A DNA stretch of 64,000 nucleotides from Calditrichia bacterium. Lineage in GTDB: Bacteria > Calditrichota > Calditrichia > RBG-13-44-9 > J075. The DNA is taken from the NCBI GenBank assembly GCA_020635015.1, contig JACKAP010000006.1, forward strand, positions 76,998-140,997, read 5' to 3'. Made by a program: the position numbers and the translations under genes. Positions within the stretch are counted from its first letter, which is position 1; each line of letters opens with the position of its first letter. Of this stretch, positions 4,580-49,970 are shown one piece after another. A model generated the notes under the pieces. That model searched no databases, was not told the origin of the DNA, and saw nothing but the letters and a program-made list of their open reading frames with translations.

Positions 4580-4582
4580 CGC

Positions 4583-5622: not shown

Positions 5623-5625
5623 GGT

Positions 5626-6132: not shown

Positions 6133-6141
6133 CCGGCGTCT

Positions 6142-7098
6142 GTGAGTGAATTGATTCGAATCCTGGACTATCTCTACCTTACCCGCCCGGTGCTGTTCTT
6201 CCCGGGCTGGGCCACTCTCCTGGCGGGTTACCTGGTGGCTGCCGGTGATGCCGGCCGGATCCTGCCGCTGCCGCCGGAAATCCGGCCCCTGTTCTGGCAC
6301 GGAGGCATCGTCACCGCCATGCTCAGCTTTGCCGGGGCGATGGGGGGAAGCTTTATCCTCAATCAGCTCCAGGATGTCGATAGCGACCGCAAAAATCAAA
6401 AACTTTTCCTGCTGGGAGACGGCCTGGTGCCGCTGCGTCACGGCTATATCGAGAGCGCGCTGCTGCTCGGAGGCAGCCTCCTCGCTGCCGTTGTCTGTGG
6501 CCTTCAGTATGCGGCTTTTACAGCGGTTTTTATCCTGGTGACCGGCTATCTGTACAATTATCCGCCGTTCCGTTTCAAGGATTATCCCCTCCGCGGCCTG
6601 ATTGCCAATATGCTAATGGGCTGGCTGGCTTTCATCCTGGGCGGGCTGCTGCTGACCGCTTTCAACCATATCCTGTTGCTGCAGTCGCTGCCCTACCTGG
6701 CCTATAATACGGCCCTCTACTTCCTGACCACCATCCCGGACCGGGAAGGGGACGCGGCGGTGAAGAAAGTAACCTTCCCGGTTCGTTACGGATTTTCCGC
6801 CACCTTATGGATCAGCAGCGGCTGTTATCTCCTGGCCGCTTTGCTGGGATGCTACCTGGGAGATCAATTCCTGCTGATCATCCTGGCCGCGGTCGCCCCT
6901 TTCTGGCTCTATGCCCTGATCCGCCATACATCTGCGGCGGTGATAATTGCGCTGAAAATGGGTATTTTCTTTTTTTCGATAGGTGTATGTATTAAATTCC
7001 CCCTGTTTGGCGTATTGATCATTGCGACCTACTATGTGACGCGATTTTACTACAAAAGACGGTTCAACTTCGATTATCCCAATTTCAAAGGCCGATAA
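6142..7098 (+). CDS. UbiA family prenyltransferase
   Basis: Polytopic membrane protein with the Asp-rich motif NQLQDVDSDRKN. GTG start. Confidence 0.75.
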   Translation: MSELIRILDYLYLTRPVLFFPGWATLLAGYLVAAGDAGRILPLPPEIRPLFWHGGIVTAMLSFAGAMGGSFILNQLQDVDSDRKNQKLFLLGDGLVPLRHGYIESALLLGGSLLAAVVCGLQYAAFTAVFILVTGYLYNYPPFRFKDYPLRGLIANMLMGWLAFILGGLLLTAFNHILLLQSLPYLAYNTALYFLTTIPDREGDAAVKKVTFPVRYGFSATLWISSGCYLLAALLGCYLGDQFLLIILAAVAPFWLYALIRHTSAAVIIALKMGIFFFSIGVCIKFPLFGVLIIATYYVTRFYYKRRFNFDYPNFKGR

Positions 7099-7194
7099 TC
7101 GGCGGTTATTGGAAAAACGCGCGAGATGAATGTGAGATTTATTATTTGCGGGTGAAATTAGTTATATATTTTAAAACGGTTCATAGCAAAAAGA

Positions 7195-8601: not shown

Positions 8602-8636
8602 GCGCGGTTCATTCTAACCTGGAAGGAAAATACTTC

Positions 8637-9560
8637 ATGGCTTCGATTTTCGATAAGATCAAACAAGGATTCAGCAGAACCCGAGAGCAGGTCTTTGACC
8701 GCATCAATCACGCTATCAATGCCAAGAAAAAGATCGATGATGAGCTGCTGGAAGAAATCGAGGAAATCCTGATCTCCGGTGATGTCGGGGTGGAGACCAC
8801 CCTGGAGATCATCGAAAACGTCAAGCAGCGGGTGCGGAAAGAGAAGTATGAAGAATCGCACGAACTCTATCGGATCCTGCGCGAGGAAGTAGCGGGCATC
8901 TTTCCGGAGAAGCAATTCCGGGAAGATGGGCTGAGCAACCGGCCTTATGTGATCCTGGTGATCGGGGTGAACGGCACCGGCAAGACCACCACCATCGGCA
9001 AGCTGGCCAACCGTTTTCGCCAGCAGGGCAAGAAAGTGCTGCTGGCGGCGGGCGATACCTTCCGGGCGGCGGCCATCGAGCAGTTGGAGATCTGGGCGCA
9101 GCGGGTGAATGTCGACCTTGTCAAGCACCAATTTGGCGCCGATCCCGGGGCAGTGGCCTTCGACGCCATCCAGGCGGGGCGCTCGCGCCAGGCGGATGTG
9201 GTGATTATCGATACCGCCGGGCGGCTGCATACCAAAGTGAACTTGATGGAAGAGCTGAAAAAGGTGCAGCGGGTGATCCAGAAAGTGGACCCGGGCGCCC
9301 CCCATCTCAATCTGCTGGTTCTCGACGGCACCACCGGCCAGAATGCCCTCAACCAGGCCCGCCAGTTTATCGATGCCGTGGGGGTGGACGGCATCGTGCT
9401 GACTAAGCTCGACGGCACCGCCAAAGGCGGGGCGGTGATCGGGATCGCCCACCAGTTGAAACTGCCGGTAGAATACATCGGGGTGGGGGAGGGGATCGAT
9501 GATCTCCAGCCGTTTGATCCTCAACTCTATGCGGAAAGCCTTTTCGCAAATGCGGAATGA
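8637..9560 (+). CDS. ftsY: signal recognition particle receptor FtsY (NG domain only)
   Basis: SRP GTPase motifs [22 protein letters not shown] and [11 protein letters not shown]. Confidence 0.92.
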
Positions 9561-9652
9561 ACCGCATCCAGCATCCAGCATCCAGCACCGAGCAAATTAA
9601 CCCGTTCAGGGGATAGCATTCATAAAAACAATTTTGTATATCTCAACTGATT

Positions 9653-18057: not shown

Positions 18058-18428
18058 AATGCGTTGCACTTTTGGTAATTTTGCCAAAAATATGCATAAT
18101 ATTTACACTTTTTGAAAAAGATGCCGTTTGGTGGCGATTGGTAGCCGGCAATATGTTTTGCCGGCATTGCCGATGCTCATCCACAGTAAAGCGCCTGATG
18201 ATGTCAAACCGGTGAATTGACCCGACTTTTCACCCAAAAACCTTCGCGTCGCACCGTCCAGCCGGCAAATGTACCCCCTTCTCTGTGTGAAACATAAAAT
18301 TCGCCAATGTTCGATTGACGCAGCTTACAAATTCGCCGCCGGGAAATTTAATCCGGGACGATGCGCCTCCTGCTGGTAAGATTTTTGCACCGACTTGCTC
18401 TGAGGATAACAGGAGAAGGAGCATTTAT

Positions 18429-20753
18429 ATGGAAGCTATGCTAATAGGAAAGTTTGTCGAGAATTACAAGATCATCGGCGTGCTCGGAAAAGGGGGGATG
18501 AGCACGGTGTTTAAGGCGATCGATCAAACGCTCGACCGGGAGGTGGCGCTCAAGATCATGGAGTCGCAGCTTTCCCGGAGAAAGGATTTTGTTAAGCGGT
18601 TCCGCACGGAAGGGCGCTCTCAGGCCTGCCTGAAGCATCCCAATATCGTCAACATTTATGCCATGCGGGAGGCCGCAGACGGACTCTTCATTGTGATGGA
18701 GTATGTGGCCGGCGGTACGCTCAAGAAGCGCATCGCCCGCGATGGCCCTTTTGCCCCGCTGGAAGCGCTCAATATTCTCAAACAATTGCTGCTGGCGATC
18801 AAGCACGCCCACTCCCGCGGCATCATCCACCGCGATATCAAACCGGCCAACATTTTACTGGACAACAGCGATGTGGTGAAAGTCACCGACTTTGGCCTGG
18901 CCAAAATGCAGCGGGATTTCGGGGTCACCAGCACCGATATTGCCGTCGGCACCCTGGGGTATTCGCCCCCGGAACAGTTGAAGAGCCTCAAGAACACCGA
19001 CCAGCGCAGCGACCTGTATTCGATCGGGATGACGTTCTATGAGATCATTGCCGGTAAGCTGCCCTTTAACGACAACGATTCCAACTTGTCGGTGCAGTTG
19101 GCTATCCTGGAGGGCAAGCTGCCTTCCCCGGATCTGCTCAATCCGGAGATCCCAGCGGAATTTGTGAACCTGATCCGCAAGGCGACCCGGAAAGATCCGG
19201 CCGACCGCTATCAGTCGGCTGCGGAAATGCTTCAGGATGTGCTGGCGCTGGAGCAGCGTTATATCCAGGCCATGCGTAAACGCGACCAGCGGGGCGCTTT
19301 TCGCCGTCTGCCGGCCGGGGCGGCATCGACTGCCGGCAGCACCCGGCCGGGCGGAGCGCTGCCGGAGGAGCGTCCCGCCCCGGCGGCCCCCCCGCAGCGC
19401 CGTCTGCCGGATCGCGCTGCCCAACCGCTGCGCCGGGTGTTTCGTTCATTGCAAAAGCGTTTCGAGGTTAACCTGCGCGCCATGGGGATTTTGACGCTGG
19501 TAATCGTATCCTTGCTGGTGGTGGGGAGCGGGGGATCGATCTATACCCATGGCCAGCGCCCGGATGGAGCAGCAGGCCTCGCCTCACCGGTGATCCCGCT
19601 CTCGATCTTTTCCCGGCCGGAAGGTGCGTCGGTATACCTGAACGGATTTCAGATCGGCACCACGCCGTTGAAGGATTACCTGGTGAGAACCGGCGAGGCG
19701 GCCCTGAAGATCGTTAAAGACAATTATTTGGCGATCGATACCAGCATGGTCTTTTTCCCCGGGGATACGGCGGCATTTTCCCTGCGGCTCTCCTCCGGGG
19801 GCAGCGAGCTGCTTGCCCTGACCGGCAGCGGCAGGCGCTCCCGCCGGGCGGATACGCTGAATGTTCCGCAATACGGCCGCATCAAAGTGATCTCCAGCCC
19901 GCCCGGGGCTGCTATTACGCTCAACGGTACCCCGGTTACGGCGGCGCAAACCCCGCATATTTTCGAAAAAATGCCTCCCGGGAGATACCGGCTGGAGTTG
20001 GCTAAGAAGGGATACCATCCCGCCATCACTCATTTTGAGGTCGTGGCGCAGGAATCGCGGCCGCTGCGGGTCAGCCTGACACCGCAAGTGGGCAATCTGT
20101 ACATTACGTCCAATCCGCCCGGGGCCGATGTCTGGCTCAACGGAAAACGGCTGGCCGGGGTGCGCACGCCGGCGGAACTGCCGGAAATTCCGGTCGGACT
20201 GCAGCGCATCACCCTGCAGAAACCGGGCTTCGAGAAGTATACCGCCCGAGTGGAAGTGGCGCCCCGGAAAACTCGCCAGGTACGGGGGAACTTGCGGCCG
20301 GTACAAGCCCGCCTGAGCGTGGTGGTGCTGCCCTATGGGTCCACTTTCGTGGACGGTGAGTTGAAGAAACACAATACCAACATCCCTTACAATGACGTGC
20401 TGAGCGCCGGGCGATATGTCATTCAAACGGTGCATCCCAAACTGGGTACCTGGGAAAAGGAACTGGTGGTCGATCGATCGCTGCAGCATCAATATATTGT
20501 CGATTTCAACCGTCAATTTAGGCTGCCGGTGACGATCCAGGATGACCGGGGAAACCGTCTCTCCGGCGCCCGGATTTATGTGGATCAGCGGGAAGTTGCT
20601 CTGCATGCGGACGGCACCCTGGAACTGCGAACCGGCCAGCATCTTCTGGAAGTAAGGCGGGAGGGGTATGTACTGCGGGAAGGGCCGATGAAGCTCAATC
20701 TCGACGAGCATTCCGTCAGAACGCTTAATTTTGTTATGGAGCCGGCTCGTTAA
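18429..20753 (+). CDS. Ser/Thr protein kinase with TM segment and multiple extracytoplasmic PEGA domains
   Basis: GVLGKGGMSTVFKA, HRDIKPANILL and DFGLAK. One TM segment (ILTLVIVSLLVVG). Repeated PEGA-like units (GASVYLNGFQIGTTPL, GAAITLNGTPV, GADVWLNGKRL). AGGAGAAGGAG RBS precedes ATG 18429. Confidence 0.88.
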   Translation: MEAMLIGKFVENYKIIGVLGKGGMSTVFKAIDQTLDREVALKIMESQLSRRKDFVKRFRTEGRSQACLKHPNIVNIYAMREAADGLFIVMEYVAGGTLKKRIARDGPFAPLEALNILKQLLLAIKHAHSRGIIHRDIKPANILLDNSDVVKVTDFGLAKMQRDFGVTSTDIAVGTLGYSPPEQLKSLKNTDQRSDLYSIGMTFYEIIAGKLPFNDNDSNLSVQLAILEGKLPSPDLLNPEIPAEFVNLIRKATRKDPADRYQSAAEMLQDVLALEQRYIQAMRKRDQRGAFRRLPAGAASTAGSTRPGGALPEERPAPAAPPQRRLPDRAAQPLRRVFRSLQKRFEVNLRAMGILTLVIVSLLVVGSGGSIYTHGQRPDGAAGLASPVIPLSIFSRPEGASVYLNGFQIGTTPLKDYLVRTGEAALKIVKDNYLAIDTSMVFFPGDTAAFSLRLSSGGSELLALTGSGRRSRRADTLNVPQYGRIKVISSPPGAAITLNGTPVTAAQTPHIFEKMPPGRYRLELAKKGYHPAITHFEVVAQESRPLRVSLTPQVGNLYITSNPPGADVWLNGKRLAGVRTPAELPEIPVGLQRITLQKPGFEKYTARVEVAPRKTRQVRGNLRPVQARLSVVVLPYGSTFVDGELKKHNTNIPYNDVLSAGRYVIQTVHPKLGTWEKELVVDRSLQHQYIVDFNRQFRLPVTIQDDRGNRLSGARIYVDQREVALHADGTLELRTGQHLLEVRREGYVLREGPMKLNLDEHSVRTLNFVMEPAR

Positions 20754-20790
20754 TACACTGCGAGTCAAGTGTTTTTTACTCTCGAGCTGC

Positions 20791-20853
20791 CATTGGTTGT
20801 TGGTTGTTGGTTAAGACAGGTCTTTGCCAAAAACCAATGCCCAACAACCAAAA
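20791..20853. repeat. heptamer-arm hairpin (TTGGTTG)n-core ttaagacaggtctttgcc-(CAACCAA-like)
   Basis: ccattggttgttggttgttggttaagacaggtctttgccaaaaaccaatgcccaacaaccaaaagc. Lies between convergent genes. Confidence 0.85.
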
Positions 20854-20881
20854 GCTAATTTTAACGCTCATACTGACGCCG

Positions 20882-21583
20882 TCACTCATTGAGCAATTCG
20901 TGCAGCTCTTTATATTTCTGACGGCTCAGCGGCAGCTGCCGCCCGTCTTTCAAGGTCACCTGGTAAGTGCCTCCCCCGGTATGGCGGTAAGCGGCGATCG
21001 CCTCCAGGTCGACAAAATAGGAGCGGTGGATTCGTAGAAAGTTGGCCGGGAGGATCTGTCCCAGTCGGTCCATGGTCTTATCCAGGATCTCCCGGCGTCC
21101 GTTTTTCAGGTGTGCCTCCACGTATATCCCGGCGGCCTTGAGAAAAAAGATCTCCCGGACCGGCAGCAGGATGTTCTGATTCTCTTTGCGCACGGTCAGA
21201 TATCGGACGGCCTCTGCCGGAGGAGATTGGCGGTCGAAATAGCGCTGAAGGGCCTGGGAAAGCCGTTCTTCATCAAAGGGCTTGGGGACGAAATCCAGCA
21301 CCCCGAACCGGAATGCCTCAATCGCCTTATCGGTATTGGCGGATATGATGATGGTGTGAAAGGAACCCGACACCGCCAGCTTGAGCAGTTCATAGCCGTC
21401 TTCACCATTCAGATTCAGGTCCAGCAGGCAGAGGTCTACCGGCTGCCGGAACAAAAATGAGGCGGCATCCTCCAGGCTGTGCTGAATATCGATGGCGCGG
21501 ATTTTAGACCCCAGCAATTGCCGGCAGAGACGCTCGATGTATTTGGCGATCGGCCTTTCATCCTCAACGATCAGAATACGCAT
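20882..21583 (-). CDS. LytTR family response regulator
   Basis: Receiver domain MRILIVEDERPIAKYI. C-terminal LytTR motif FLRIHRSYFVDLEAI. Confidence 0.9.
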   Translation of the reverse strand: MRILIVEDERPIAKYIERLCRQLLGSKIRAIDIQHSLEDAASFLFRQPVDLCLLDLNLNGEDGYELLKLAVSGSFHTIIISANTDKAIEAFRFGVLDFVPKPFDEERLSQALQRYFDRQSPPAEAVRYLTVRKENQNILLPVREIFFLKAAGIYVEAHLKNGRREILDKTMDRLGQILPANFLRIHRSYFVDLEAIAAYRHTGGGTYQVTLKDGRQLPLSRQKYKELHELLNE

Positions 21584-21611
21584 GCATCCCTCCCTTTAGC
21601 GCAGTGCCCGG

Positions 21612-23378
21612 TTAATGTTGGGCGATGATGATATTCACTTCCCAGCCATCGCTGCGCAGGCCATAATCCATCTGCCAACGGTGCGGATAACGCTCTTCCA
21701 GGCGGGCCTTGACATACTTCAATCCCATCCCTTCTTCGATCTGCTGCGCCGGCTGCCGGGAGAGCTTCTCCAACTGCGAACCGTCATTCCATAGCCGGTA
21801 GTGCACGGTGCCGTTGTTGCGCTCGCAACTGATCAAAAATTTCCCGTTTTCCCCGCTGCGGTAAGCGTGGGTCAGTCCGTTCTCGATCAGGGTATGGAAG
21901 ATCATCGGCGGTATCTTTTCCTCGCCGGGAAGATTTTGTGCTTCCAGGGCATACTGTACGTCCTGGCGGTAGCCCATCAGGGTCAGGTGGGTGCGGCAGA
22001 GCGCAACTTCGTCGCTTAGCGGGATCTCGGTTTGTGAGGAGATCTGGTTGATCATGCGGAATTCCTCCGCCAGCGATTGGATCAGTTTGATGGCGGTGGG
22101 AGGATCTTCCCGGATCCAGGAAATGATCGAGAGCAGGGTGTTCATCAAAAAATGAGGTTGGATGTGCTTTTTGAGCAATTCGGTCTCCAGCCGGGCGGAA
22201 CGCAGTTTGGCCACCTCATGCTGCTGGTTCTGCTGCTTGATCTGCCGGCTGATGGAAAGCATCACGCAAAAGATGAAAAAGACGATACCGGCGGTATAGA
22301 CGTACCAGACCACACCCCAGTAAAAGAACACCATCATTGCCAGCAGTCCAAGGATCCCGATCAGGGCAGTCAGGCTGCCGGGCACTTTTTTCCGGATGGC
22401 GTATAGCGCCATGCCGGATGCGTAGAGCAGCACCAGCACCGGATCCGACTGGTCGAATAACAGCAGCGGAACCACTGCCAGCACACTGACGATCAGCATG
22501 TGATAATACTTGCGGGGCATCTCGAAAATCAAGATAAAAAAGATCGCCAGCAGCACTCCGCTTAGCGGCGTGATGATATAAGAGAGCCAGACCAGGCTGT
22601 CGGCATAGCGGATATTGATATTCCAGAGCAGTTGATAGGCCAGGATGCCGATCCCCAGCACGCTGGCCAGGCAGTAGAGACTGAACATCAGGTAAGGCCG
22701 CTGCCGGCCGCCCCCCAGGAACAGGGCGAAGCTGAACAGGCAGGCAAAAAAGAATACCCCGATATTAAACAACTGGAGATACATAAACTCGTTCAGCTTG
22801 TCGCGGATATCGGAGAGATAACCCAGCGGTATCCGGAAATAACGGAAAGAGTCATGCACATGCAGGTTGGAGAGCCGGATGGCAATCGTATGGATACCGG
22901 GGGTGGTCCACTCCCGCCTGAGTTTGACCACCCGCAGCAGGTCGCCGGGAATCTCCGCCGCCTGCACCGCCGCCACGCCGCCGTTGCGGTGGATCAGCCG
23001 CCCATCCCAGTAAATTTCATAGGCGGAGACGATCCCGGAGAAATACATCGCCAGGATATCAAAATCGTTCTGTTCTCCTTCCAGCCGCACCCGGGTGCGG
23101 TACCAGCGGATTCCGTGATTGGTTTCCTTTTCTTTGCCGGGATGCAGCCGGCCCCAGGCCTGGTCGTCGAAATCGGACAGCGCCCAAAGCGGGTTGTCGC
23201 CAAAGCGGTATTTCCAGTCTCCCAGCCGTTCGAGCTGCCCGCTCCGGCTGAGATCGAAAACGTGCAGGGAATCGCTGCCGGTCTTTTGAGCGTGCAGCGG
23301 CAGGATGCAGAAGAGAGCGATGGCCAGAATCGTGATTTTTGAAGGAGGAAGGATAAAGGATAAAATGAGATTTGCCAC
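21612..23378 (-). CDS. 7TMR-DISM-type sensor histidine kinase (LytS/His_kinase family)
   Basis: Extracytoplasmic domain, about 7 TM segments, LKKHIQPHFLMNTLLSI (His_kinase motif) and a C-terminal ATPase. The start is uncertain: GTG 23378, or upstream ATGs up to 23504. Confidence 0.85.
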   Translation of the reverse strand: MANLILSFILPPSKITILAIALFCILPLHAQKTGSDSLHVFDLSRSGQLERLGDWKYRFGDNPLWALSDFDDQAWGRLHPGKEKETNHGIRWYRTRVRLEGEQNDFDILAMYFSGIVSAYEIYWDGRLIHRNGGVAAVQAAEIPGDLLRVVKLRREWTTPGIHTIAIRLSNLHVHDSFRYFRIPLGYLSDIRDKLNEFMYLQLFNIGVFFFACLFSFALFLGGGRQRPYLMFSLYCLASVLGIGILAYQLLWNINIRYADSLVWLSYIITPLSGVLLAIFFILIFEMPRKYYHMLIVSVLAVVPLLLFDQSDPVLVLLYASGMALYAIRKKVPGSLTALIGILGLLAMMVFFYWGVVWYVYTAGIVFFIFCVMLSISRQIKQQNQQHEVAKLRSARLETELLKKHIQPHFLMNTLLSIISWIREDPPTAIKLIQSLAEEFRMINQISSQTEIPLSDEVALCRTHLTLMGYRQDVQYALEAQNLPGEEKIPPMIFHTLIENGLTHAYRSGENGKFLISCERNNGTVHYRLWNDGSQLEKLSRQPAQQIEEGMGLKYVKARLEERYPHRWQMDYGLRSDGWEVNIIIAQH

Positions 23379-23637
23379 AGAGACACAGAGGCTGAAAGAC
23401 ACAGCATCGTTGCCAACTCTGTGGTCTCTGTGCCTCTGTGGCATATATCCTATTCGCATTTTCCGCTTGACGCTGTTCTCCCATTCACCCATATACCGAT
23501 CCACGAATTTATAATCAAAACTAATAGATTATACTCCTTCCCCTTCCCATCCGCAATACCAAACATTTCATTTGCATTTCCGGCAGCAGCGGGTATATTT
23601 GTTGCCTGAGCATTTTCATCATATCGGTAGGAAACGA

Positions 23638-27242: not shown

Positions 27243-27405
27243 GATGACCTTCCTTTTCTCAAACTTGTGGTTTGACCGATTATGGCGATCAGCTTAAAAA
27301 TTACGCCGGATCGGCGATTGAATCAATCGAAAAAACCCTTTTTCATCTATTGGATGAACGAGCGTGCGAAAAGTGACATCATGCTGGAAATTGGCGAGAC
27401 GGCAT

Positions 27406-27439
27406 AAAAAAAGCCCGCCGGACAGTTTGCCCGACGGGC
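27406..27439 (-). terminator. intrinsic terminator (minus strand) inside a 525-bp non-coding gap
   Basis: On the minus strand, a 9-bp GC-rich stem (gcccgtcgg/ccggcgggc, one mismatch) is followed by a run of 7 T. Confidence 0.55.
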
Positions 27440-27640
27440 CCCTCCTTTAAAAACCCGTTGTACGGTCCCTCTTCCGGCCAACGGCGTTTTCTAAAAATTG
27501 CCCGCCAGTGTCGCCACCTTTGGGCTTTCCCTCCTTAAGGGAACAAATCGCGAGGTAACTGGAGGATGTAAACCGTCCAGTTACCTCCTCCCTCGATGCA
27601 GGCAGGACCTGCAATACAATGTATTCGATAATTCCGCTTG
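27406..27640 (-). ncRNA. candidate unclassified structured RNA or leader ending at the terminator
   Basis: No plausible ORF. Contains a perfect 12-bp hairpin (27552-27563 / 27576-27587), a further stem ccgttg/caacgg and the terminal intrinsic terminator. I could not match it to a known RNA family by eye. Confidence 0.25.
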
Positions 27641-27773
27641 GATAATATACCAGTTATGATTAGTATCTCCTGTCTTATCGCTAACCGTCTACTATATTGT
27701 TCTGTTGCAGCGGCTGAATATTGAATTTTTTTTGAAAAAAATAAAAATTTTGAACCAGCTTTAAAGGTTGCAC

Positions 27774-28316
27774 ATGACGCCGAGACAAAATCGATCCGAT
27801 CAGCCGGCAAATCCGGAGGTGGAAAAGCAAGTGGAGGCGCTGCTGGGTTTGAAGGAGCAGATAAGAGATGTGGTGAATTATCACATCTGGAATAAAGATA
27901 ACCGGGAAGATATCCTGCAAGAGATTATCGCGGCCGCTATCACCAGCATCCGCAACGGTAATTTTAATCCCGAGGCCGGGGTGAAATTTACGACCTATGT
28001 CTTTAAAATCGTTAGAAATAAGATCACCGACTATATCAAGTCTCAGACAAAAATCCGGGATAATGAGGTGCCCGGACTGGATATTGATCTATTCCCCGAC
28101 GATCCGGATACCCTATCTGAAGAGGATATGGAGGAATTGCGGGAAGCGCTAAGCGACATGTTGAAGCCATTAAAACCGAAATACCGCGAGATACTGAGGC
28201 TGCGATTTATTGAAGGGCTTTCGATCGAAGCAATCAGCAAAATTCTCGATTTACCGCCCCGGAGAGTCAGCGAACGCATTCATTATGCGATTCAAAAGAT
28301 CCGTAAAAAAAAGTAA
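27774..28316 (+). CDS. ECF-type RNA polymerase sigma-70 family factor
   Basis: Region 4 KYREILRLRFIEGLSIEAISKILDLPPRRVSERIHYAIQKIR, plus a region 2-like N-terminus. 180 aa. Confidence 0.85.
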   Translation: MTPRQNRSDQPANPEVEKQVEALLGLKEQIRDVVNYHIWNKDNREDILQEIIAAAITSIRNGNFNPEAGVKFTTYVFKIVRNKITDYIKSQTKIRDNEVPGLDIDLFPDDPDTLSEEDMEELREALSDMLKPLKPKYREILRLRFIEGLSIEAISKILDLPPRRVSERIHYAIQKIRKKK

Positions 28317-28373
28317 AAAAAATCAATATAAGCCCTCATTTTTAGAATAATTATTCGGGAGGGAGTTAAATTT

Positions 28374-29270
28374 ATGCCATGCCATTTAAAAGATCGTGAT
28401 AAAATTATCAGCCGCTACCTGTTGCATGAGCTTAGCGAAGCAGAAGCGATGGAGTTCCAGGCGCACTTTTTCGAATGTGAGGAGTGTTTTCAAGAAATTA
28501 CTTTCAAGCGGAAAGCGTTGCGCTTGTTTCATGACCGCGGTGAAGAAATACTGGAATCCATCGAAACGGAGCCGGAGCCAGAGTTGGATCGAGCGACGCG
28601 TGGATTCTTTGCGCGCTACCGGCCGCATTTCGCTACAGCCGCAGCAGTGTTGATCGTGATGGCGTTGGTCATCCAGTTTACCCCATTGCTGGAAAAACCG
28701 GCTGACCAACAATGGCAGCGGGATATGAAGGTGCCTTATGAATATCGTCCGGGCGACAGTTTCCGCTCTGCCGGTACGCCTAGCGCAAAAAGTACGGCCG
28801 ATTCCCTGGCGGGTCAATTGCAGCGGGGGATAAACCGTTCGATGGGGGCCTATAATCAACCGAATTATGCGCTGATGCTCCAGAATATGGCGCAGTTGGA
28901 GGCGGCCGCAGCGCACTTGCGCGGGCAGCTATCTGCCCAGGATACCGCTGCCGCCATGATCCTGCGCGATTATGAATTCTATTACGGGGTCAGCAGGCTG
29001 GCCCGGGCGCGCACCCAAATAACCGACCTGGATCCGAAATACCGGGAACAGTTGCTCCAGGAAGCGGTCACGAACATCTCCCTGGCCTTAGATCTGGCCG
29101 TGGTTTATGGAAAAACCGATACCGATAAAGAACATTATTTCCTGGGGCTGGCGTACGGCTTTTCCGGTCAATTTTCCCGGGCCGTGGAGGCGCTGGAGAA
29201 GGTTACAGACGTTTCCAACCCGCAGTTTGACAGCCTCGCATCATTCCTCAAATTATGGAAAAACCGTTGA
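28374..29270 (+). CDS. zinc-finger (HxxxCxxC) anti-sigma factor with one TM and an extracytoplasmic helical domain
   Basis: FQAHFFECEECFQE ZAS motif. TM segment FATAAAVLIVMALVIQF. Lies directly downstream of the ECF sigma gene. Confidence 0.7.
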   Translation: MPCHLKDRDKIISRYLLHELSEAEAMEFQAHFFECEECFQEITFKRKALRLFHDRGEEILESIETEPEPELDRATRGFFARYRPHFATAAAVLIVMALVIQFTPLLEKPADQQWQRDMKVPYEYRPGDSFRSAGTPSAKSTADSLAGQLQRGINRSMGAYNQPNYALMLQNMAQLEAAAAHLRGQLSAQDTAAAMILRDYEFYYGVSRLARARTQITDLDPKYREQLLQEAVTNISLALDLAVVYGKTDTDKEHYFLGLAYGFSGQFSRAVEALEKVTDVSNPQFDSLASFLKLWKNR

Positions 29271-29495
29271 AGCCTCGCCAACCGATCTTTCCTGGCCGGC
29301 GAGGCCGGTGAATTCGCTCCAGATAGTTGATGCGGTCTCGGGCCGCCGCAACGACTGCAACCGATGAGATTGATCCTCCGCCGTAATCCAGCGCCAAGTC
29401 GACTTAAATCCATCCCTGGATTTGAAAGGCAATATTCGTATATTTTCCGAAGTCAACAACATCTCAACTGCCGGATAGATTACTTCGGGGGCTTT

Positions 29496-32400
29496 GTGAA
29501 AACGAACCTTTTCGAAATTAAGAGAGTGCTTTATCCGTTGATGCTGGTCGCTGGAATAAGCACATTGTTTGCTCAGGAACCCGGGCAGTATGAGCCCGAC
29601 CCTGCTGATCTGTCCCGCCTTTATACCTTCATGGAAACCATCGCCCGGGATTCGGTCGAAGTGCAGATCCGCGCTTACCGCCAATTTGTCACCGATCATC
29701 CGGAGCAGGAGCGGGCCTGCTGGCATTTGCTGGATTTTATGGTGATGGGCGGCCAACTGGAGGAGGCCCGGGATTTCTTTCAGGAGCAGGCGCTCGTTCC
29801 GGCAGGACGGCGCAACAGCCTCTGGATGCTGGCCCGGATCTACGCCCTGGAGGGCAATGCCGCTGCCGCCTTGCAAACCTACCGGGAAGTCTTTCAAAAC
29901 GGAGCGGCCTCCTTTGTGCTGCTGGATGATTTTGCCCTGTTTATCGTCCAAAACAAACTCGACCTGGAAAGTGAAATCGCGCAGTTGTCGATATCATCTG
30001 CCCAGCAAGCGATGATCCGAGTGGAAGTGTTGCGCCGGCGCGGTGAGGTCGAGAGGGTCCTGACCGTGCTTCAGGAAACGCTCCCCGACTATCAAACCAA
30101 CAAGTATTTGCTCCATCTCGCCGCCTACTGTCATCTCAACTCCGGAGACGAGGCCAGCGCGCTGCGTCTTCTGGAAAAAGGTCTTGGGATTGCCCGCGCA
30201 GAGAATGACCGGTTTATGACCGCCTATTACCTGACCATGATGGCGAATGTTGCCGGGGGCAATCGCGGAAAGGCCTATTGGGAAGAGGCCCGCAAGATTT
30301 CCGAAGGTCTTGCCAACCTGCGCCTGTCTATCAATGTCTATGTTGCCAGTTCCTTCGCGCTGGAGGATAAACAAGCTGCTCTGGGCTATATGGAACGGGC
30401 GATTGAAATTGCTACCGCTATCCGAAGCACACCGGAGATCGTATCGGCCTGGCTGTTGAAGGCCCAGCTGGAATCAGATCTGGAAAATTATAACGAGGCC
30501 CTGGATGCGTTTGTGCGGACGGAACAATATCTTGCTCAAGATGGCAATGAGGTTCACCGCTACGATTTTTACCTGGCCCGGGGAAGGTTCTTTCATAAAC
30601 TGCAACTAAACCAATGGGCCCGGAAGGATTACGAAACGGCCTATGAGTGGGCCCGGCAGAATGGCATGCTTTCCTACAACTATCTCGCACTCTCGCGTCT
30701 GGCCGATATCACCCTGAAAGAAAAAGAATATGAACGTGCCATTGTCCTGTACCGGGATTTCTTGAACCTGCACGCATCGAAGGTGCGTGTGTCCAACCGG
30801 GTTTATTGGCGCTATAAATTGGCGGAAGCATACCAGGCACAACATAAATATGCCGAAGCCCAGCAGCAGTTCGCCCGGGTTTACCAAGCGGCAGATCAAA
30901 TTCCGTTTCCGGTGTATAAAGAGCGGATGAAAGCGTATGCCCTGATACAGCAGGTCGCTATTCTGGCGGATCAGGAGGATCTGAAAGGCGCAAGCCGCCT
31001 GCTTAACAACGATGATCTCCGCCAGGTGTCGAAAGACCAGCAGGATGTCAAGATTGCTTATTTGATGATGCAGGGGCGGTTGTATCAACAAAAAGAGGAG
31101 ACAGACAGCGCGATCGTATGCCTGGAGGAGGCATCGAGAATTATCGAGGCGCAGCGCGGGCAACTGAAAGCGGAGGACCTGCGGGTAGGGTTTTTCAGTG
31201 ATAAAAGCAAGGTATATGATGAGCTGGTCAGTTGTTACTGGCAGCGCTATCGGCATGAATCCCAGCCGGAGGATCTGGAGCAAATTTACACTGCGCTGGA
31301 AATGCGCCGGGCACGGGTACTGCGTGATCTCAAATTTTCCGGGAATAAAAATCTCCGGAGGCAATCCAAAGATCCCTTGTATCAAAAATATCATGCGGCC
31401 TGTAATAGACTTCAAGCGCTTCAGCGCAGGATCCGGTTGAACCCCGGGCTTTATAGTGACTTGCAGCTCCAGTTAAAAACCGCCCGCCAGCAGGTAATCA
31501 ATACCCGGCTTCATTTGCTGAATCAATACGGATCGGCGGCTGTAGAGCAGCAGAAACCGCGACTGGATGAACTGGTCAGCGCCATGCAGTTACGGCAGAT
31601 GAGTCTGCTGTTTTACTGTATCGCCGAAAACGAGGCGTTTGTGCTGGTGGTGAACCGGGGGGAGCCCCGGGTGATCGCTCTGGATGCAAAGCTGGCGACC
31701 ATCGATTCCAAGGTGGATTCCCTGCTCCGGCCGCTGCACGAAATGCCGCCGGGTGGAATGGTAGGAATCCCATTCCGTGCGAAACTGGCCAACGAGTTAT
31801 ATCAGATCCTGATCGCGCCGGTTAAAGCGCAGGTCGACCTGGAGGAACAGGTGATGATCATCCCCGACCTGGCACTGGCCGGGCTGCCCTTTGATATACT
31901 GCTGAGCCAGATGCCCTCCCGGGAAGTTTATACCCCGGCCGATCCGGATACCGATTACCGCGATTCCTTTCTGCTGCATCAGCATGCAATCCTCTATGCG
32001 CCCAGTTCCTGGGTGGTACGCTCCGCTTCCAGCGCCGCCGTTGATTCCAGCGCCATACTGCTGCTGGCCAATCCCTTCTCGAATGATTTGTCACGCCCAT
32101 CGGAAAATGCGCTGCCGGTGAACCGGCAGCTTGAATATTTTGAACCCCTGATTTATGCCGATTACGAAGCGCAGATGATCAAAAGCCGTTGCGAGCAGGT
32201 GGAGGTCTTCCAGCACCAGCAGGCCACGCTCAAGGTGATTGATTCCCTCGGCAGCCGGTATGGGGTGCATCATTATTCGACGCACAGCTTTATCGATAAC
32301 GAGTTTGGGGCGTTTTCCGGCCTGTTTTTTGCCCTGAGTGATGATTCAACCGACGATGGCCTGCTGACGGTTTATAAGATTGCCGATCTGGAACTGAATT

Positions 32401-32855
32401 GTGACCTGGTATGTCTGAGCGCCTGCGAGAGCGGGGCGGGAAAGTTGGTGCGGGGTGAAGGGGTGATGGGAATGCCCCGGCAGTTCCTGGCCGCGGGCGC
32501 CCGCCGGGTGCTGATGAGCCAGTGGCTGGTCTCCGACCGCTTTAGCTCGCTGTTGATGCCGCTGTTTTACGAAGGAGCTATTGGGGAGCGTCAGCCCAAA
32601 GCGGTGGCGCTGCAACAGGCGAAGGTCGGCCTGCTGAGCCAGGTATCCGAAGAGCAATTGCGCTATGCCCATCCGTTTTTCTGGGCCGGTTTTACCCTCT
32701 ACGGCGAGCCGGAGATTGCGCTCGGCCCGCGCTTTCCGCTCTTTTCCGGAAACTGGTGGTTTGTCCTGCTGCTGGGCGCTATTGCCGGTGGGTATTTTGT
32801 CGCCGTCTGGCGCCGAATGAACGGCACCCCCCATTCTCGCGACCGGCGCACCTAG
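29496..32855 (+). CDS. TPR-repeat CHAT-domain (caspase-like) protease, N-terminal signal and C-terminal TM anchor
   Basis: Long TPR-like helical repeats. CHAT catalytic region HYSTHSF...LVCLSACESGAGK. C-terminal WWFVLLLGAIAGGYFVAVW. GTG 29496 precedes the signal-like LYPLMLVAGISTLFAQ; the ORF opens at 29364. Confidence 0.85.
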   Translation: MKTNLFEIKRVLYPLMLVAGISTLFAQEPGQYEPDPADLSRLYTFMETIARDSVEVQIRAYRQFVTDHPEQERACWHLLDFMVMGGQLEEARDFFQEQALVPAGRRNSLWMLARIYALEGNAAAALQTYREVFQNGAASFVLLDDFALFIVQNKLDLESEIAQLSISSAQQAMIRVEVLRRRGEVERVLTVLQETLPDYQTNKYLLHLAAYCHLNSGDEASALRLLEKGLGIARAENDRFMTAYYLTMMANVAGGNRGKAYWEEARKISEGLANLRLSINVYVASSFALEDKQAALGYMERAIEIATAIRSTPEIVSAWLLKAQLESDLENYNEALDAFVRTEQYLAQDGNEVHRYDFYLARGRFFHKLQLNQWARKDYETAYEWARQNGMLSYNYLALSRLADITLKEKEYERAIVLYRDFLNLHASKVRVSNRVYWRYKLAEAYQAQHKYAEAQQQFARVYQAADQIPFPVYKERMKAYALIQQVAILADQEDLKGASRLLNNDDLRQVSKDQQDVKIAYLMMQGRLYQQKEETDSAIVCLEEASRIIEAQRGQLKAEDLRVGFFSDKSKVYDELVSCYWQRYRHESQPEDLEQIYTALEMRRARVLRDLKFSGNKNLRRQSKDPLYQKYHAACNRLQALQRRIRLNPGLYSDLQLQLKTARQQVINTRLHLLNQYGSAAVEQQKPRLDELVSAMQLRQMSLLFYCIAENEAFVLVVNRGEPRVIALDAKLATIDSKVDSLLRPLHEMPPGGMVGIPFRAKLANELYQILIAPVKAQVDLEEQVMIIPDLALAGLPFDILLSQMPSREVYTPADPDTDYRDSFLLHQHAILYAPSSWVVRSASSAAVDSSAILLLANPFSNDLSRPSENALPVNRQLEYFEPLIYADYEAQMIKSRCEQVEVFQHQQATLKVIDSLGSRYGVHHYSTHSFIDNEFGAFSGLFFALSDDSTDDGLLTVYKIADLELNCDLVCLSACESGAGKLVRGEGVMGMPRQFLAAGARRVLMSQWLVSDRFSSLLMPLFYEGAIGERQPKAVALQQAKVGLLSQVSEEQLRYAHPFFWAGFTLYGEPEIALGPRFPLFSGNWWFVLLLGAIAGGYFVAVWRRMNGTPHSRDRRT

Positions 32856-42965: not shown

Positions 42966-43369
42966 GTTGATGGGTTAATGGGGAAAAGGATAAAGGATAA
43001 AGGATAAAGGATAAAGGATAAAGGTTGAAGATACTGGATACTGGATACTGGATAAAATAAAAATGCTTGTTCAGGTGTGAAAATCGGGTTCATTTAAGCA
43101 TCCAGCATCCAGCATCCAGCATCCAGCATCCAGCATCCAGCATCCAGCATCCAGCATCCAGCATCCAGCATCCAACATCCAACATCCAGCATCCAACATA
43201 TACTCATCAGACAAAGCCATCCGCAAAAACTTGCAAATTTCCTATTGACCTGACCCGATCCCTTCAACATATTTCCGCCGCAATGAAAAATCAACCCATC
43301 AACCCATCAACCCATCAACCCATCAACCCATCAACCGATCAACCCATTAACCCATCAACCCATCAACCC
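42966..43369. repeat. composite simple-repeat element (left copy): (GGATAAA)n-(GGATACT)n-unique core-(GCATCCA)n-spacer-(CAACCCAT)n
   Basis: Read directly. It ends exactly at the ATG (43370) of the S9 peptidase gene. Inverted partner at 45296-45527. Confidence 0.9.
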
Positions 43370-45295
43370 ATGAAAACATTACCCTATGGCACCTGGCCAT
43401 CACCGATTACCGCCGATCTCATCGCTGCCGCCGGGCGGCGGCTGGGCGATATCGCCGTCGATGGAGATTCGGTTTACTGGATCGAAAGTCGCCCGGAGCA
43501 GGAGGGGCGCAATACCATCATGATGTGGAACCCCGGCGGGGAGTTTCGGGAAGTTACCCCGCCGCCTTTTAATGTGCGCTCCCGGGCCCATGAATACGGC
43601 GGCGGCGCTATGGCGGTGTATGGCGGCCGGGTGTTCTTTGTGAACGATGCAGATCGCCAGATCTATCACATTCCTCCCGGCGGATCCCCGCAGGCGCTGA
43701 CCAGCGAATCCGATACCGCCTATGCCGATATGATCCTCGATCCGGCGCGCCAGCGGCTGATCCTGGTGCAGGAGCATTATTTTGATGACAGCCGCCCGCC
43801 CCGCGACATGCTGGCCGTGCTTTCCCTGCGCGGCCGCCCGGGATATTGTGAGCCGCTGGTGAGCGGGAACGATTTCTATGCCAGTCCCGCCCTGAGCCGC
43901 GACGGCCGGCAGCTTTGCTGGCTGAGCTGGGACCATCCGGCAATGCCCTGGAACGGTACTGAATTATGGGTGGCGGAGGTAGGGGATGACGGTCAACTGC
44001 GCCGCCGGCGCCGGATTGCCGGAGGCGCGCAGGAGTCGGTGTTCCAGCCGCAATGGGGTACAGACGGCACCCTGTATTTTGCTTCCGACCGCAGGGAGGG
44101 CTGGTGGAACCTCCATGCCTGGGATGGGCACACCATCCGGCCGGTGCTGGAGATGGCTGCGGAGTTCGCCTTGCCCCAGTGGGTTTTCGGAATGTCGACC
44201 TATTGTATTTTGAATGAGCGTTGTATCGCCGCTGCGTACACCCGGGAGGGGCGCTGGGAGATGGGGCTGATCGATCCGCAGCGCGGTGATCTGGAGGCCC
44301 TGGCGCTGCCCTTTAGCTATATTACCCAGGTTCGCGGCGCCGGGGAGCGGATCGCTTTTGTCGGCGCTGCGCCGGATGCAGCGGAGGCGGTTTATACCCT
44401 GGAACTGCCGTCGCAGCACCTGCAGATGTTGCGGAAATCCAGCGATCTGGAGGTGGATGCCGGCTATATTTCCACCCCGCAGGCAGTGAGTTTTGAAAGT
44501 GATGGCGAGGAGGTGCACGGCTTTTTCTATCCTCCCAGCAATCGCGATTTCAGCGCTCCGGAGGACGAAAAACCTCCGCTGATCGTATTCATTCACGGCG
44601 GTCCCACGGCGGCGGCGAACAGCGGATTGGATCTTCGCAAACAATTTTGGACCAGCCGCGGCTTTGCGGTGCTCGACGTCAACTACCGGGGCAGCACCGG
44701 CTATGGGCGGGCGTACCGGGAAAGCCTCAACGGCCGTTGGGGGGTGGCCGATGTGCAGGATTGCGTCAACGGCGCCCGGCGTCTGGCGGCGCAGCAGCAG
44801 GCGGATCCGGAAAGGCTGCTGATCCGCGGCGGCAGCGCCGGGGGATTCACCGCCCTGGCGGCGCTGACTTTTCACGATTGTTTCCGGGCCGGGGCGAGCT
44901 ATTATGGCATCAGCGATCTGGAAGCGCTGGAGCAGGAGACCCACAAGTTTGAATCGCGCTACAATCATCAATTGATCGCCCCCTATCCCGCCGGTAAGCC
45001 AGTCTACCGCGAACGCTCGCCGCTGCACCATGCCGGGGATCTGAACCGCCCGGTGATCTTCCTGCAGGGCCTGGAGGATCGGGTGGTGCCCCCCGGTCAG
45101 GCGGAAAGAATGGCCCACGCCCTGCGTAAACGCGGCGTGCCGGTGGCTTATCTTACCTTTGAGGGCGAAGGGCACGGCTTCCGCAAGCCGGAAACCATCC
45201 GCCGCGCCCTGGAAGCGGAGTTGTTCTTTTATGGAAGGGTGCTGGGATTCGAGCCCGGGGAGAAGCTTGATCCGGTGCAGATAGATAATTTGTGA
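43370..45295 (+). CDS. S9 family serine peptidase (prolyl oligopeptidase / acylaminoacyl-peptidase type)
   Basis: Beta-propeller N-terminal half. Catalytic nucleophile motif IRGGSAGGFTALAAL and C-terminal ...EGEGHGF. The ORF part upstream of 43370 is translated repeat DNA. Confidence 0.88.
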   Translation: MKTLPYGTWPSPITADLIAAAGRRLGDIAVDGDSVYWIESRPEQEGRNTIMMWNPGGEFREVTPPPFNVRSRAHEYGGGAMAVYGGRVFFVNDADRQIYHIPPGGSPQALTSESDTAYADMILDPARQRLILVQEHYFDDSRPPRDMLAVLSLRGRPGYCEPLVSGNDFYASPALSRDGRQLCWLSWDHPAMPWNGTELWVAEVGDDGQLRRRRRIAGGAQESVFQPQWGTDGTLYFASDRREGWWNLHAWDGHTIRPVLEMAAEFALPQWVFGMSTYCILNERCIAAAYTREGRWEMGLIDPQRGDLEALALPFSYITQVRGAGERIAFVGAAPDAAEAVYTLELPSQHLQMLRKSSDLEVDAGYISTPQAVSFESDGEEVHGFFYPPSNRDFSAPEDEKPPLIVFIHGGPTAAANSGLDLRKQFWTSRGFAVLDVNYRGSTGYGRAYRESLNGRWGVADVQDCVNGARRLAAQQQADPERLLIRGGSAGGFTALAALTFHDCFRAGASYYGISDLEALEQETHKFESRYNHQLIAPYPAGKPVYRERSPLHHAGDLNRPVIFLQGLEDRVVPPGQAERMAHALRKRGVPVAYLTFEGEGHGFRKPETIRRALEAELFFYGRVLGFEPGEKLDPVQIDNL

Positions 45296-45527
45296 GTGGA
45301 TGGGTGGATGGGTTGATGAGTGGATGGGTGGATGGGTTAATGGGTTGAGATGCTGGATGCTGGATGCTGGATGCTGGATGCTGGATGCTGAAATGAACCC
45401 GATTTTCGCACCCGAACAAGCATTTTTATTTTACCCAGTATCCAGCACCTTCAACCTTTATCCTTTATCCTTTATCCTTTACCCTTTATCCTTTATCCTT
45501 TATCCTTTTCCCCATTCACCCATCAAC
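45296..45527. repeat. composite simple-repeat element (right, inverted copy)
   Basis: Starts 1 nt after the S9 peptidase stop. It is the reverse complement of the left element, including the unique core (4 substitutions in ~56 nt by my count). Confidence 0.9.
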
Positions 45528-49127: not shown

Positions 49128-49478
49128 ATGAGCATTCAGAAACCGCCGAAAAAACTCTATTATTCGCTGCGTCAAACCGCCTCCATGACCGGTTTGAGTG
49201 TCGCCGTGCTTAAAAATTGGGAGAAAGAATTTCCCGAAGTTCAGCCCGCCCGCAATCGCGCCGGCAACCGCCATTATACCGATAGCGACTTGACCCTCCT
49301 CTTCCGCATCAAGGAATTACTTTTGGAAAAAAAGTTGTCTCCGGAGGAAATTCACACCCGCCTGCGCAGCCATCCGGCCCAGCCCGCTCCGGAAGTGGCC
49401 GACGTGGTGCGCCTGAAAAAAGTGCTGGCGGAGATCAAGCTGGAGATCGAGGAAATATTGCTGCTGTTGCGGGAGTAG
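49128..49478 (+). CDS. MerR family transcriptional regulator
   Basis: HTH YYSLRQTASMTGLSVAVLKNWEKEF...RNRAGNRHYTDSDL. Confidence 0.75.
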   Translation: MSIQKPPKKLYYSLRQTASMTGLSVAVLKNWEKEFPEVQPARNRAGNRHYTDSDLTLLFRIKELLLEKKLSPEEIHTRLRSHPAQPAPEVADVVRLKKVLAEIKLEIEEILLLLRE

Positions 49479-49482
49479 GGGG

Positions 49483-49604
49483 GACGAAGGGTGAAGGATG
49501 AAGGATGAAGGATGAAGGATGAAGGATGAAGGATGAAGGATGAAGGATGAAGGATAAAGGATAAAGGATGAAGGATAAAGGATGAAGGATGAAGGATGAA
49601 GGAT
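49483..49604. repeat. (GGATGAA)n / (GGATAAA)n heptamer array filling the whole intergenic spacer
   Basis: About 17 heptamer units lie between the MerR-family stop (49478) and the next start (49605). Confidence 0.9.
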
Positions 49605-49970
49605 ATGTCGGAACGTAAATCGCCACGACTCAGTGGAGGCATCCAAAAATTTTGGGAAGAGCGGGAGCAGTTGAATGAAACCGTGCTGAAAAATGCCGGC
49701 CTCACCACCCGGCGTTTTTTCAGTCTGGATCATCAGGCCTACCAGGAAGGCGCTCTGCCGGTCAAGACCAAGGAACTGCTGGGCCTGGTCGCCTCGCTGG
49801 TGCTGCGCTGCGACGATTGCATCTCCTATCATCTGGTGCGCTGCCGGGAAGAAGGGGTGAGCGCGGCAGAATTGGAAGAGGCGCTGTCGATCGGGCTGGT
49901 CGTGGGAGGCTCTATCACCATTCCCCATCTCCGCCGGGCCTTCCGCGCCTGGGAGGAGATGGAAGGCTAG
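49605..49970 (+). CDS. carboxymuconolactone decarboxylase (AhpD-like) family protein
   Basis: LVLRCDDCISYH CxxC motif. About 120 aa. Confidence 0.75.
   Translation: MSERKSPRLSGGIQKFWEEREQLNETVLKNAGLTTRRFFSLDHQAYQEGALPVKTKELLGLVASLVLRCDDCISYHLVRCREEGVSAAELEEALSIGLVVGGSITIPHLRRAFRAWEEMEG

Follow-up and report, generated by a model that had tools for sequence, protein, structure and literature searches.

Why does a gene for a caspase-like protein stand beside the genes for a sigma factor of the extracytoplasmic function (ECF) type and its anti-sigma factor? The question is raised by a 64,000-nucleotide (nt) stretch of the genome of a Calditrichia bacterium (phylum Calditrichota, assembly GCA_020635015.1, contig JACKAP010000006.1, positions 76,998 to 140,997 of the forward strand), referred to here as the window. 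The list of open reading frames (ORFs) together with family searches gives three successive plus-strand genes, which encode an ECF sigma factor, an anti-sigma factor and a protein with tetratricopeptide repeats (TPR) and a CHAT domain:

27774..28316, plus strand: ECF (group 4) sigma factor, 180 amino acids (aa), from Pfam and NCBIfam
28374..29270, plus strand: anti-sigma factor, 298 aa, with a zf-HC2 domain, one transmembrane (TM) helix and a periplasmic domain
29496..32855, plus strand: TPR-CHAT protein, 1119 aa, with a GTG start and matches to Pfam CHAT and TPR families

The original prediction, made from the DNA letters, had described three consecutive genes, all of which are present where it placed them, and proposed that the CHAT protein acts as a site-1-like protease, or as a scaffold for a periplasmic cue, to release the sigma factor. 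We found that the sigma/anti-sigma/TPR-CHAT module recurs in many uncultured bacteria and that the association is broad and evolutionarily robust. Our tentative reading, to which we give slightly less than an even chance, is that the three genes form one envelope-to-cytoplasm module, a split version of the DdvA-DdvS design of Myxococcus xanthus, in which the CHAT protein would be the site-1 protease.

Conservation and variation of the module

A phmmer search with the periplasmic domain of the anti-sigma factor gave 166 cluster representatives among 1.84 billion (E ≤ 1e-3). Of these, 84 are proteins of 250–430 aa with the domain in C-terminal position, and in 81 of these 84 family members a TM-like segment lies immediately N-terminal to it. 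A TPR-CHAT gene was found in 8/8 loci of this family (the window and the loci numbered L001, L002, L006, L008, L091, L172 and L174), a count that covers only the loci with enough downstream DNA and includes two CHAT genes cut by a contig end. The CHAT proteins of L001, L172 and L002 share 73%, 29% and 28% identity, respectively, with that of the window. As far as the contigs reach, L001, L008, L002, L006 and L003 all have the order sigma factor, anti-sigma factor, small ORF and large TPR-CHAT gene. The flanking genes around the module are different in L002, and the gene order is identical in L091, a Calditrichaceae metagenome-assembled genome (MAG). Five distant family members were also inspected. 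In L172 a small ORF is followed by a gene for a TPR-CHAT protein with a TM segment, and in L174 by the N-terminus of a TPR-CHAT protein. A JGI contig of 2.8 kb has a small ORF and then a truncated 228-aa ORF of unverified identity, and the remaining contigs end too early.

The same linkage is seen in metagenomes. A scan seeded by the zinc-finger motif of the family gave 80 loci, and a sigma ORF lies directly upstream of the anti-sigma gene in 62/64 of the metagenomic loci. The TPR-CHAT ORF is directly downstream in 27 of the 36 loci that have at least 2.5 kb of downstream DNA, and it is convergent in three more. Loci of the acidobacterial type have the CHAT gene directly at the stop codon of the anti-sigma gene or overlapping it. 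From the CHAT side, we drew the 80 closest TPR-CHAT loci from GTDB species genomes, among them genomes of Acidobacteriota, Aminicenantes, Bacteroidota, Calditrichaceae and Zixibacteria. An ECF-like sigma factor was found within 2.5 kb of the CHAT gene, in several orientations, in 19 of the 44 loci with full flanks. Sigma ORFs are about 8-fold denser up to 2.5 kb from the CHAT gene than farther off in these loci (29 vs 4, binomial p = 2e-6).

The linkage is kept at 22–35% protein identity in Calditrichota, Acidobacteriota, Zixibacteria and unclassified MAGs. As the gene order around the CHAT gene varies, the link does not rest on one inherited operon, and as the flanking genes differ between lineages, the conserved unit is the module itself. 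No neighbour beyond the module is universal among these loci, and the glutamate synthase seen in some of them looks incidental. The original prediction had suggested asking whether the CHAT neighbour is conserved: it is, strongly and across phyla.

CHAT protein and anti-sigma factor vary in form together. Anti-sigma factors with a TPR-type ectodomain are paired with a C-terminally anchored CHAT protein in the window, L001, L002, L008, L091 and L172, and also in L011 and L032, in both of which the CHAT gene comes before the sigma gene. Acidobacterial-type anti-sigma factors are single-pass proteins with a different ectodomain (beta-rich by eye) and are paired with an unanchored CHAT protein. 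In L169, from a MAG of Pyrinomonadaceae, a single ORF of about 1190 aa (3897-8047) fuses an anti-sigma-like N-terminus, a TM helix and TPR-CHAT. It matches both the anti-sigma N-terminal profile and the CHAT profile, has lost the zinc ligands and has an ECF sigma gene directly upstream. Judging from these profile matches, L169 is a DdvA-like fused architecture outside Myxococcota.

Three further observations concern the makeup of individual loci. In L172 (1602-2015) and L174 (3-311) the HxxxCxxC motif is on a separate small protein of about 100–137 aa, and the longer membrane protein downstream (390–413 aa) has lost it, so that the anti-sigma factor itself is split in two. The L091 locus has a second small caspase-like gene (8289-9296; FSGHGH ... 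DACYAGH by eye), which overlaps the end of the TPR-CHAT gene. About ten acidobacterial-type loci have, upstream of the sigma gene and divergent from it, a gene for a giant FG-GAP/ASH-Ig surface protein of 1360–2170 aa (L055 443-5536, L058 3164-7246, L069 3195-7343 and about seven further loci), which may belong to the regulon in this clade.

The window differs from most of its relatives in the approximately 225 bp between the anti-sigma and TPR-CHAT ORFs. A small ORF is present at this place in L002, L003, L006, L008, L091, L172 and L174. It encodes 85–164 aa, evolves fast, is Pro-rich near the C-terminus and usually has no signal peptide. L008 keeps an intact ORF of 109 aa, the 5' half of which is deleted in the window and in L001. 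The product of the small gene may serve as ligand, substrate or inhibitor. The remnant and the intact copies are:

29283..29400 of the window, plus strand: decayed 3' remnant of the small gene, from DNA alignment with L008 and L001
L008 1055-1384: intact small ORF
L003 3024-3356: intact small ORF
L006 1910-2188: intact small ORF
L002 4354-4677: intact small ORF
L091 4586-4843: intact small ORF
L172 3318-3812: intact small ORF
L174 1520-1894: intact small ORF

Domains and motifs of the three proteins

The first gene had been taken for an ECF sigma factor, and both Pfam (Sigma70_r2 3.9e-9, Sigma70_r4 1.6e-11, with Sigma70_ECF also matching) and NCBIfam (TIGR02937, ECF, 2.3e-27, 95.7 bits vs a cut-off of 42.9) agree. 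With regions r2 and r4 and neither r1.1 nor r3, it is an ECF (group 4) sigma-70 factor. None of the equivalog-level models of NCBIfam reaches its cut-off for this protein. SigW is the closest solved relative (1.6e-8), and the nearest database protein is 99% identical and annotated as 'MAG: Calditrichaeota bacterium'. The conserved start is ATG 27774; the mechanical ORF begins at TTG 27768.

The second and third proteins have the following parts:

28374..28520, plus strand: cytoplasmic zinc-finger domain of the anti-sigma factor (C3, H31, C35, C38), from Pfam zf-HC2
28629..28691, plus strand: single TM helix of the anti-sigma factor, about aa 86–106, from hydropathy (Kyte-Doolittle maximum 2.2)
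28713..28769, plus strand: juxtamembrane motif WQRDMKVPYEYRPGDSFRS, a candidate cleavage or docking site
28791..29270, plus strand: periplasmic helical TPR-like domain, from AlphaFold2 (AF2) and weak TPR Pfam matches
29496..29573, plus strand: signal peptide of the TPR-CHAT protein, MKTNLFEIKRVLYPLMLVAGISTLFA followed by QEP, with a basic n-region, a 16-aa hydrophobic core and a cleavage site between LFA and Q
29601..31535, plus strand: TPR superhelix, aa 36–680, from Pfam TPR families, all helical hairpins in AF2
31593..32720, plus strand: CHAT domain (caspase-like, clan CD), aa 700–1075, with His930 at 32283-32285 and Cys977 at 32424-32426
32754..32855, plus strand: C-terminal TM anchor, aa 1087–1109, and basic cytoplasmic tail, from hydropathy and AF2 (WWFVLLLGAIAGGYFVAVWRRMN and then GTPHSRDRRT)

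The anti-sigma factor had been described as a protein with the motif HFFECEEC, one TM segment and an extracytoplasmic domain of about 190 aa, and the zf-HC2 match (3e-7, 30.9 bits vs a cut-off of 22.2), hydropathy and the AF2 model all bear this out. The motif supplies H31, C35 and C38. Together with C3, which is likewise invariant in all homologs, these make up a CHCC set of predicted zinc ligands, and the domain has weak profile matches to RslA, DdvA-Nt and RsrA. On the strength of its N-terminal HxxxCxxC motif the protein can be assigned to the zinc-binding anti-sigma (ZAS, class I) type. In the AF2 model one long helix (aa 73–106) spans the TM region. About 190 aa at the C-terminus make up a helical part that resembles TPRs, and the predicted local distance difference test score (pLDDT) is 70–89 for aa 140–296 and below 50 for aa 102–135. 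A Foldseek search with the ectodomain returned peptide-binding domains of three TPRs with E-values that are not significant, and no specific match to the scaffold region of DdvA.

Within the ectodomain family, conservation is highest not in the TPR-like domain but in the juxtamembrane motif, with the family consensus YvYDdKVPYEY..SS[LF]R[GS], which directly follows the TM helix and lies inside the low-confidence, predicted disordered linker (aa 102–135). P121 and R131 are each present in 83/85 of the aligned family members. A P1 Arg is common in clan CD proteases, and separase, metacaspases and gingipain R all cut after Arg. With a near-invariant Arg, a small residue after it and a predicted disordered setting close to the membrane, the motif resembles such a site and is a candidate for the place where CHAT may cut or dock. 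The point about a P1 Arg has been made for separase in the study of DdvA, where craspases were noted to differ (PMC11506125).

The third gene had been read as a TPR-rich CHAT protein of about 1120 aa with a signal-like N-terminus and a C-terminal TM segment. This holds, with 1119 aa from a corrected start: the alternative of an 1163-aa ORF starting at 29364 was rejected, as the GTG at 29496 is kept in the DNA alignment with L001 and L008. The protein matches Pfam CHAT (2.8e-54) and several TPR families. Its AF2 model (36 sequences, pLDDT 85, predicted template modelling score 0.79) shows a signal helix, a TPR superhelix, an alpha/beta CHAT domain and a terminal TM helix. The C-terminal anchor is common to the CHAT proteins of L001, L002, L008, L011, L032, L091 and L172, and a signal-peptide-like or lipoprotein-like N-terminus was seen in every sigma-linked CHAT homolog inspected. 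With its signal peptide and its C-terminal TM helix with a basic tail, the protein is predicted to be periplasmic. This agrees with the earlier proposal that CHAT is extracytoplasmic and on the same side as the sensor domain of the anti-sigma factor.

His930 (HYSTHSF) and Cys977 (LSACESG) are invariant in 20 sigma-linked homologs and, separately, in 36 database homologs. The GxG...GEG loop around the dyad is likewise invariant across very divergent members, which argues that catalysis is under selection. A single-sequence search of the PDB with the CHAT protein gave no matches, and with the full-length profile TPR proteins crowded out all else; DdvA (8ROT/8RW5, E = 2.3e-6), the best solved relative, and then Csx29 (0.004–0.04) came up only with a profile restricted to the CHAT domain. 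The His and Cys motifs align to ATHG and AACEGG of DdvA, the dyad of which is given as H862 and C907 (PMC11506125). In the Foldseek search with the TPR-CHAT model, separase came out on top (1.2e-13), followed by DdvA (1.8e-12) and Csx29 (2.8e-12). From these alignments the CHAT domain of the window has a caspase-like fold with an intact His...Cys dyad, and the loss of the dyad on proper alignment, which the original prediction had allowed for, is not seen, also when solved structures are included.

A probable split counterpart of DdvA-DdvS and its alternatives

The closest precedent is DdvA-DdvS of M. xanthus, a single-pass anti-sigma factor fused to periplasmic TPR-CHAT and its ECF sigma factor (PMC11506125, Sci Adv 2024). 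DdvA is made up of a CHCC zinc domain in the cytoplasm, a flexible linker in the periplasm, and a large periplasmic scaffold and TPR-CHAT with a His-Cys dyad (structures PDB 8ROT, 8RW5 and 8RLZ; PMC11506125). It forms an arrow-shaped homodimer with each CHAT site facing the linker of the partner, and it becomes a substrate of RseP when TPR-CHAT is removed. That the signal-activated CHAT clips the linker in trans, as a site-1 protease, has been proposed and not demonstrated. Fused DdvA-like proteins have been reported only from Myxococcota and one Comamonas species, and only a subset of the DdvA-like pairs lies near defence genes (PMC11506125).

The window shares with DdvA-DdvS an ECF sigma gene adjoining that of an anti-sigma factor that has an N-terminal CHCC zinc domain and a single TM helix, a flexible linker next to the membrane, and periplasmic TPR and CHAT domains with an intact His/Cys dyad (all predicted for the window). 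The mechanism proposed is also the same, with CHAT as site-1 protease and then RseP. Unlike DdvA, the window has the anti-sigma factor and TPR-CHAT as two genes and two proteins, the CHAT protein brings a signal peptide and a C-terminal membrane anchor of its own, and the anti-sigma factor retains just a small TPR-like ectodomain. Relatives of the window moreover carry the additional small ORF between both genes. The host belongs to Calditrichota and not Myxococcota, and the split form occurs in several phyla. Given the separate ORFs and the signal peptide of the CHAT protein, the window has a split analog of DdvA and not an ortholog.

No CBASS or CRISPR island adjoins the module as seen for some DdvA-like pairs. 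We found no CRISPR array and no cas or defence genes within about 10 kb of the three genes, and PADLOC gave zero matches for the anti-sigma factor and the CHAT protein. With no defence genes in the window, a phage-sensing role as proposed for DdvA is not indicated here. A description of the two-gene split arrangement was not found in the literature searched. CHAT is not mentioned in the main text of the ECF re-classification paper (Casas-Pastor 2021), whose supplementary group descriptions could list the neighbourhood.

The original prediction had seen in the module a CRISPR-independent analog of Craspase (Cas7-11/gRAMP, Csx29, Csx30/Csx31 and RpoE). The independence from CRISPR stands, as neither the array search nor the neighbour annotation found a CRISPR/Cas7-11 component. 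As a model, DdvA-DdvS is much closer, and the same site-1-like scheme has been published for it (PMC11506125). Membership in type III-E was rejected: the window has no Cas7-11 or other cas genes, no array and no Csx30, and its sigma factor gives a partial match of 44.2 bits to the III-E model NF041236, below the cut-off of 100. Csx29 is cytoplasmic and RNA-activated, whereas the CHAT protein of the window is predicted to be exported, and the profile similarity to Csx29 (0.004–0.04) is weaker than that to DdvA (2e-6).

In canonical regulated intramembrane proteolysis (RseA/DegS/RseP, RsiW/PrsW/RasP, RsiV) a single-pass anti-sigma factor also holds an ECF sigma factor, and a cue leads to site-1 and then site-2 cuts, as proposed here. 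The site-1 proteases of those systems are DegS-type serine proteases or PrsW-type metalloproteases, whereas the candidate of the window is a caspase-like cysteine protease of clan CD that has a TPR sensor and is encoded in the same operon. Separase resembles the CHAT protein in its helical-repeat and caspase-like architecture and in cutting after Arg in a disordered motif, like the site suggested here. It is eukaryotic, nuclear or cytoplasmic and regulated by securin and Cdk, with no link to a membrane or a sigma factor.

In the mechanism that we infer for the window, the zinc-finger domain of the single-pass anti-sigma factor would hold the ECF sigma factor at the inner face of the membrane, and the disordered juxtamembrane linker and small TPR-like domain would be displayed in the periplasm. 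The TPR-CHAT protein would be exported via its signal peptide and stay tethered to the same membrane by its C-terminal helix. As the CHAT domain ends about 10 residues before this anchor, the active site should sit near the membrane, beside the linker of the anti-sigma factor. A periplasmic cue, probably a protein or peptide bound on the long TPR superhelix, would activate CHAT, which would touch the anti-sigma factor and cut it in the conserved linker, perhaps after Arg131, between the Arg and the small residue of [LF]R[GS]. This cut might license an RseP-type site-2 protease and then cytoplasmic proteolysis, so that the sigma factor would be freed to act on a putative regulon. The fusions (DdvA and L169), the conservation of the dyad, the co-variation of the partners, the linkage through rearrangements and the linker motif together argue for a direct functional and probably physical interaction in which catalysis matters.

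Other explanations of the same locus have to be weighed. That chance or inherited order has placed the three genes side by side, with no functional link between CHAT and the sigma/anti-sigma pair, is highly improbable. In its favour, the window alone shows same-strand adjacency only, and in reference genomes about 60% of the closest CHAT relatives lack a sigma gene in their vicinity. The linkage at 22–35% identity across phyla with differing flanks, together with the enrichment (p = 2e-6), effectively refutes this explanation. More serious is that TPR-CHAT could be an output, a sigma-dependent and co-transcribed periplasmic protease acting on other envelope or foreign proteins, with the sigma factor freed in some other way. 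ECF operons often hold target genes directly downstream of the sigma/anti-sigma pair. The CHAT genes that abut or overlap the anti-sigma stop codon in acidobacterial-type loci suggest co-transcription, the long TPR superhelix could bind many substrates, and in L091 a second caspase-like gene, recognized by its motifs only, comes after the CHAT gene. The link nevertheless outlasts changes in gene order, including convergent layouts that are not co-transcribed, fusions such as DdvA and L169 are hard to explain for a mere target gene, and CHAT changes form with the ectodomain of the anti-sigma factor. On balance we consider an output role unlikely, if a serious contender.

TPR-CHAT might also be a non-cleaving co-sensor or shield on the anti-sigma ectodomain. 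A ligand would release it and expose the anti-sigma factor to a conventional site-1 or site-2 protease, and any proteolysis by CHAT would be aimed at the ligand or at CHAT itself. RseB on RseA and the DdvA ectodomain, which blocks RseP, are precedents. The observation that removal of TPR-CHAT suffices for RseP-dependent degradation of DdvA and that dyad mutants behave like wild type (PMC11506125) is in line with such a role. So are the TPR-type protein-binding surfaces on both partners, and docking would be an equally good role for the conserved linker motif. The invariance of the dyad and of the GxG...GEG loop across very divergent members argues against a shield that does not cut, and we think this role rather unlikely.

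Several observations weigh against CHAT as the site-1 protease of the window. Catalytic mutants of DdvA showed no phenotype in the conditions that were tried (PMC11506125). The adjacency, conserved as it is, would also be expected of a sigma-regulated target gene, and of the closest CHAT relatives no more than about 40% have a sigma gene beside them. For the anti-sigma factor the AF2 model is weak (pLDDT 63 overall, built from five sequences). A motif search of the window found no RseP-like site-2 protease, a gene that normally lies elsewhere in the genome. Upstream of the sigma genes of the subfamily we saw no convincing common -35/-10 elements of an ECF-type promoter, only AT-rich tracts, and no regulon could be defined. 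The small gene has been lost in the window, which may mean that its module works differently from the ancestral one or is partly degenerate. The site-1-like protease of the original prediction is plausible and has a precedent, and it is unproven.

What appears new against the literature searched is the split-gene, widely distributed form, as the site-1-like idea had already been published for DdvA. A wider claim would be that exported TPR-CHAT proteins beside ECF sigma/anti-sigma pairs make up a widespread and as yet undescribed class of site-1 proteases of the caspase-like type, found in Calditrichota, Acidobacteriota, Zixibacteria and further lineages that are for the most part uncultured. 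They would start regulated intramembrane proteolysis by a cut after the Arg of [LF]R[GS], and DdvA would be a rare fused form. We put this forward as a possibility that we doubt more than we believe. To our knowledge, among the many ECF groups only a few have a known mode of sigma release. DdvA, the sole studied anti-sigma factor with a periplasmic caspase-like domain, has been described as a narrow myxobacterial case, and its proteolytic step is unproven because the signal is unknown. As protease and candidate substrate are separate proteins in the split module, in vitro cleavage and Cys-to-Ala tests become simpler, and the near-invariant motif in the linker is a concrete candidate for the place of the cut, which makes the DdvA question more tractable. 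If the proposal is true, caspase-like proteases would join the site-1 proteases that trigger bacterial transmembrane signalling. It would also unite the systems in which CHAT or other proteases control ECF sigma factors, namely Craspase, CalpL-type systems and DdvA.

Upstream element and surroundings in the window

A structured noncoding element of about 290 nt lies between the thioredoxin-like gene and the sigma gene (27405-27690). Copies are found in L001 (about 75-365) and L170 (about 25-320) with about 90–95% identity, judged by eye from alignments, despite the sigma proteins of L001 and L170 being only 65–67% identical. Compared with shuffled controls the element folds with z = -6.7 on the minus strand and z = -5.9 on the plus strand. 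The minus strand terminates in a GC-rich hairpin followed by a U-run (27405-27440). No RNA family in Rfam matches the element, which is a candidate for a small RNA or leader of a new type.

The neighbours of the module in the window are genes for an M61 peptidase, an NTP transferase, a thioredoxin-like protein and GFO/IDH/MocA, BNR, Big_7 and decarboxylase proteins. At 18315-23504 a Ser/Thr kinase with PEGA domains adjoins a histidine kinase/LytTR response regulator pair, ordinary signalling proteins that show no apparent connection with the three genes. The window also contains intergenic arrays of 7–8-nt tandem repeats (GGATGAA/GGATAAA, AGCATCC, ATCAACCC and TGGGTGGA) at 42974-43401, 45293-45517, 49454-49625, 56981-57082, 61767-61854, 3211-3328 and 9549-9611. 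The arrays that flank the ORF ending at 45295 are reverse complements of each other.

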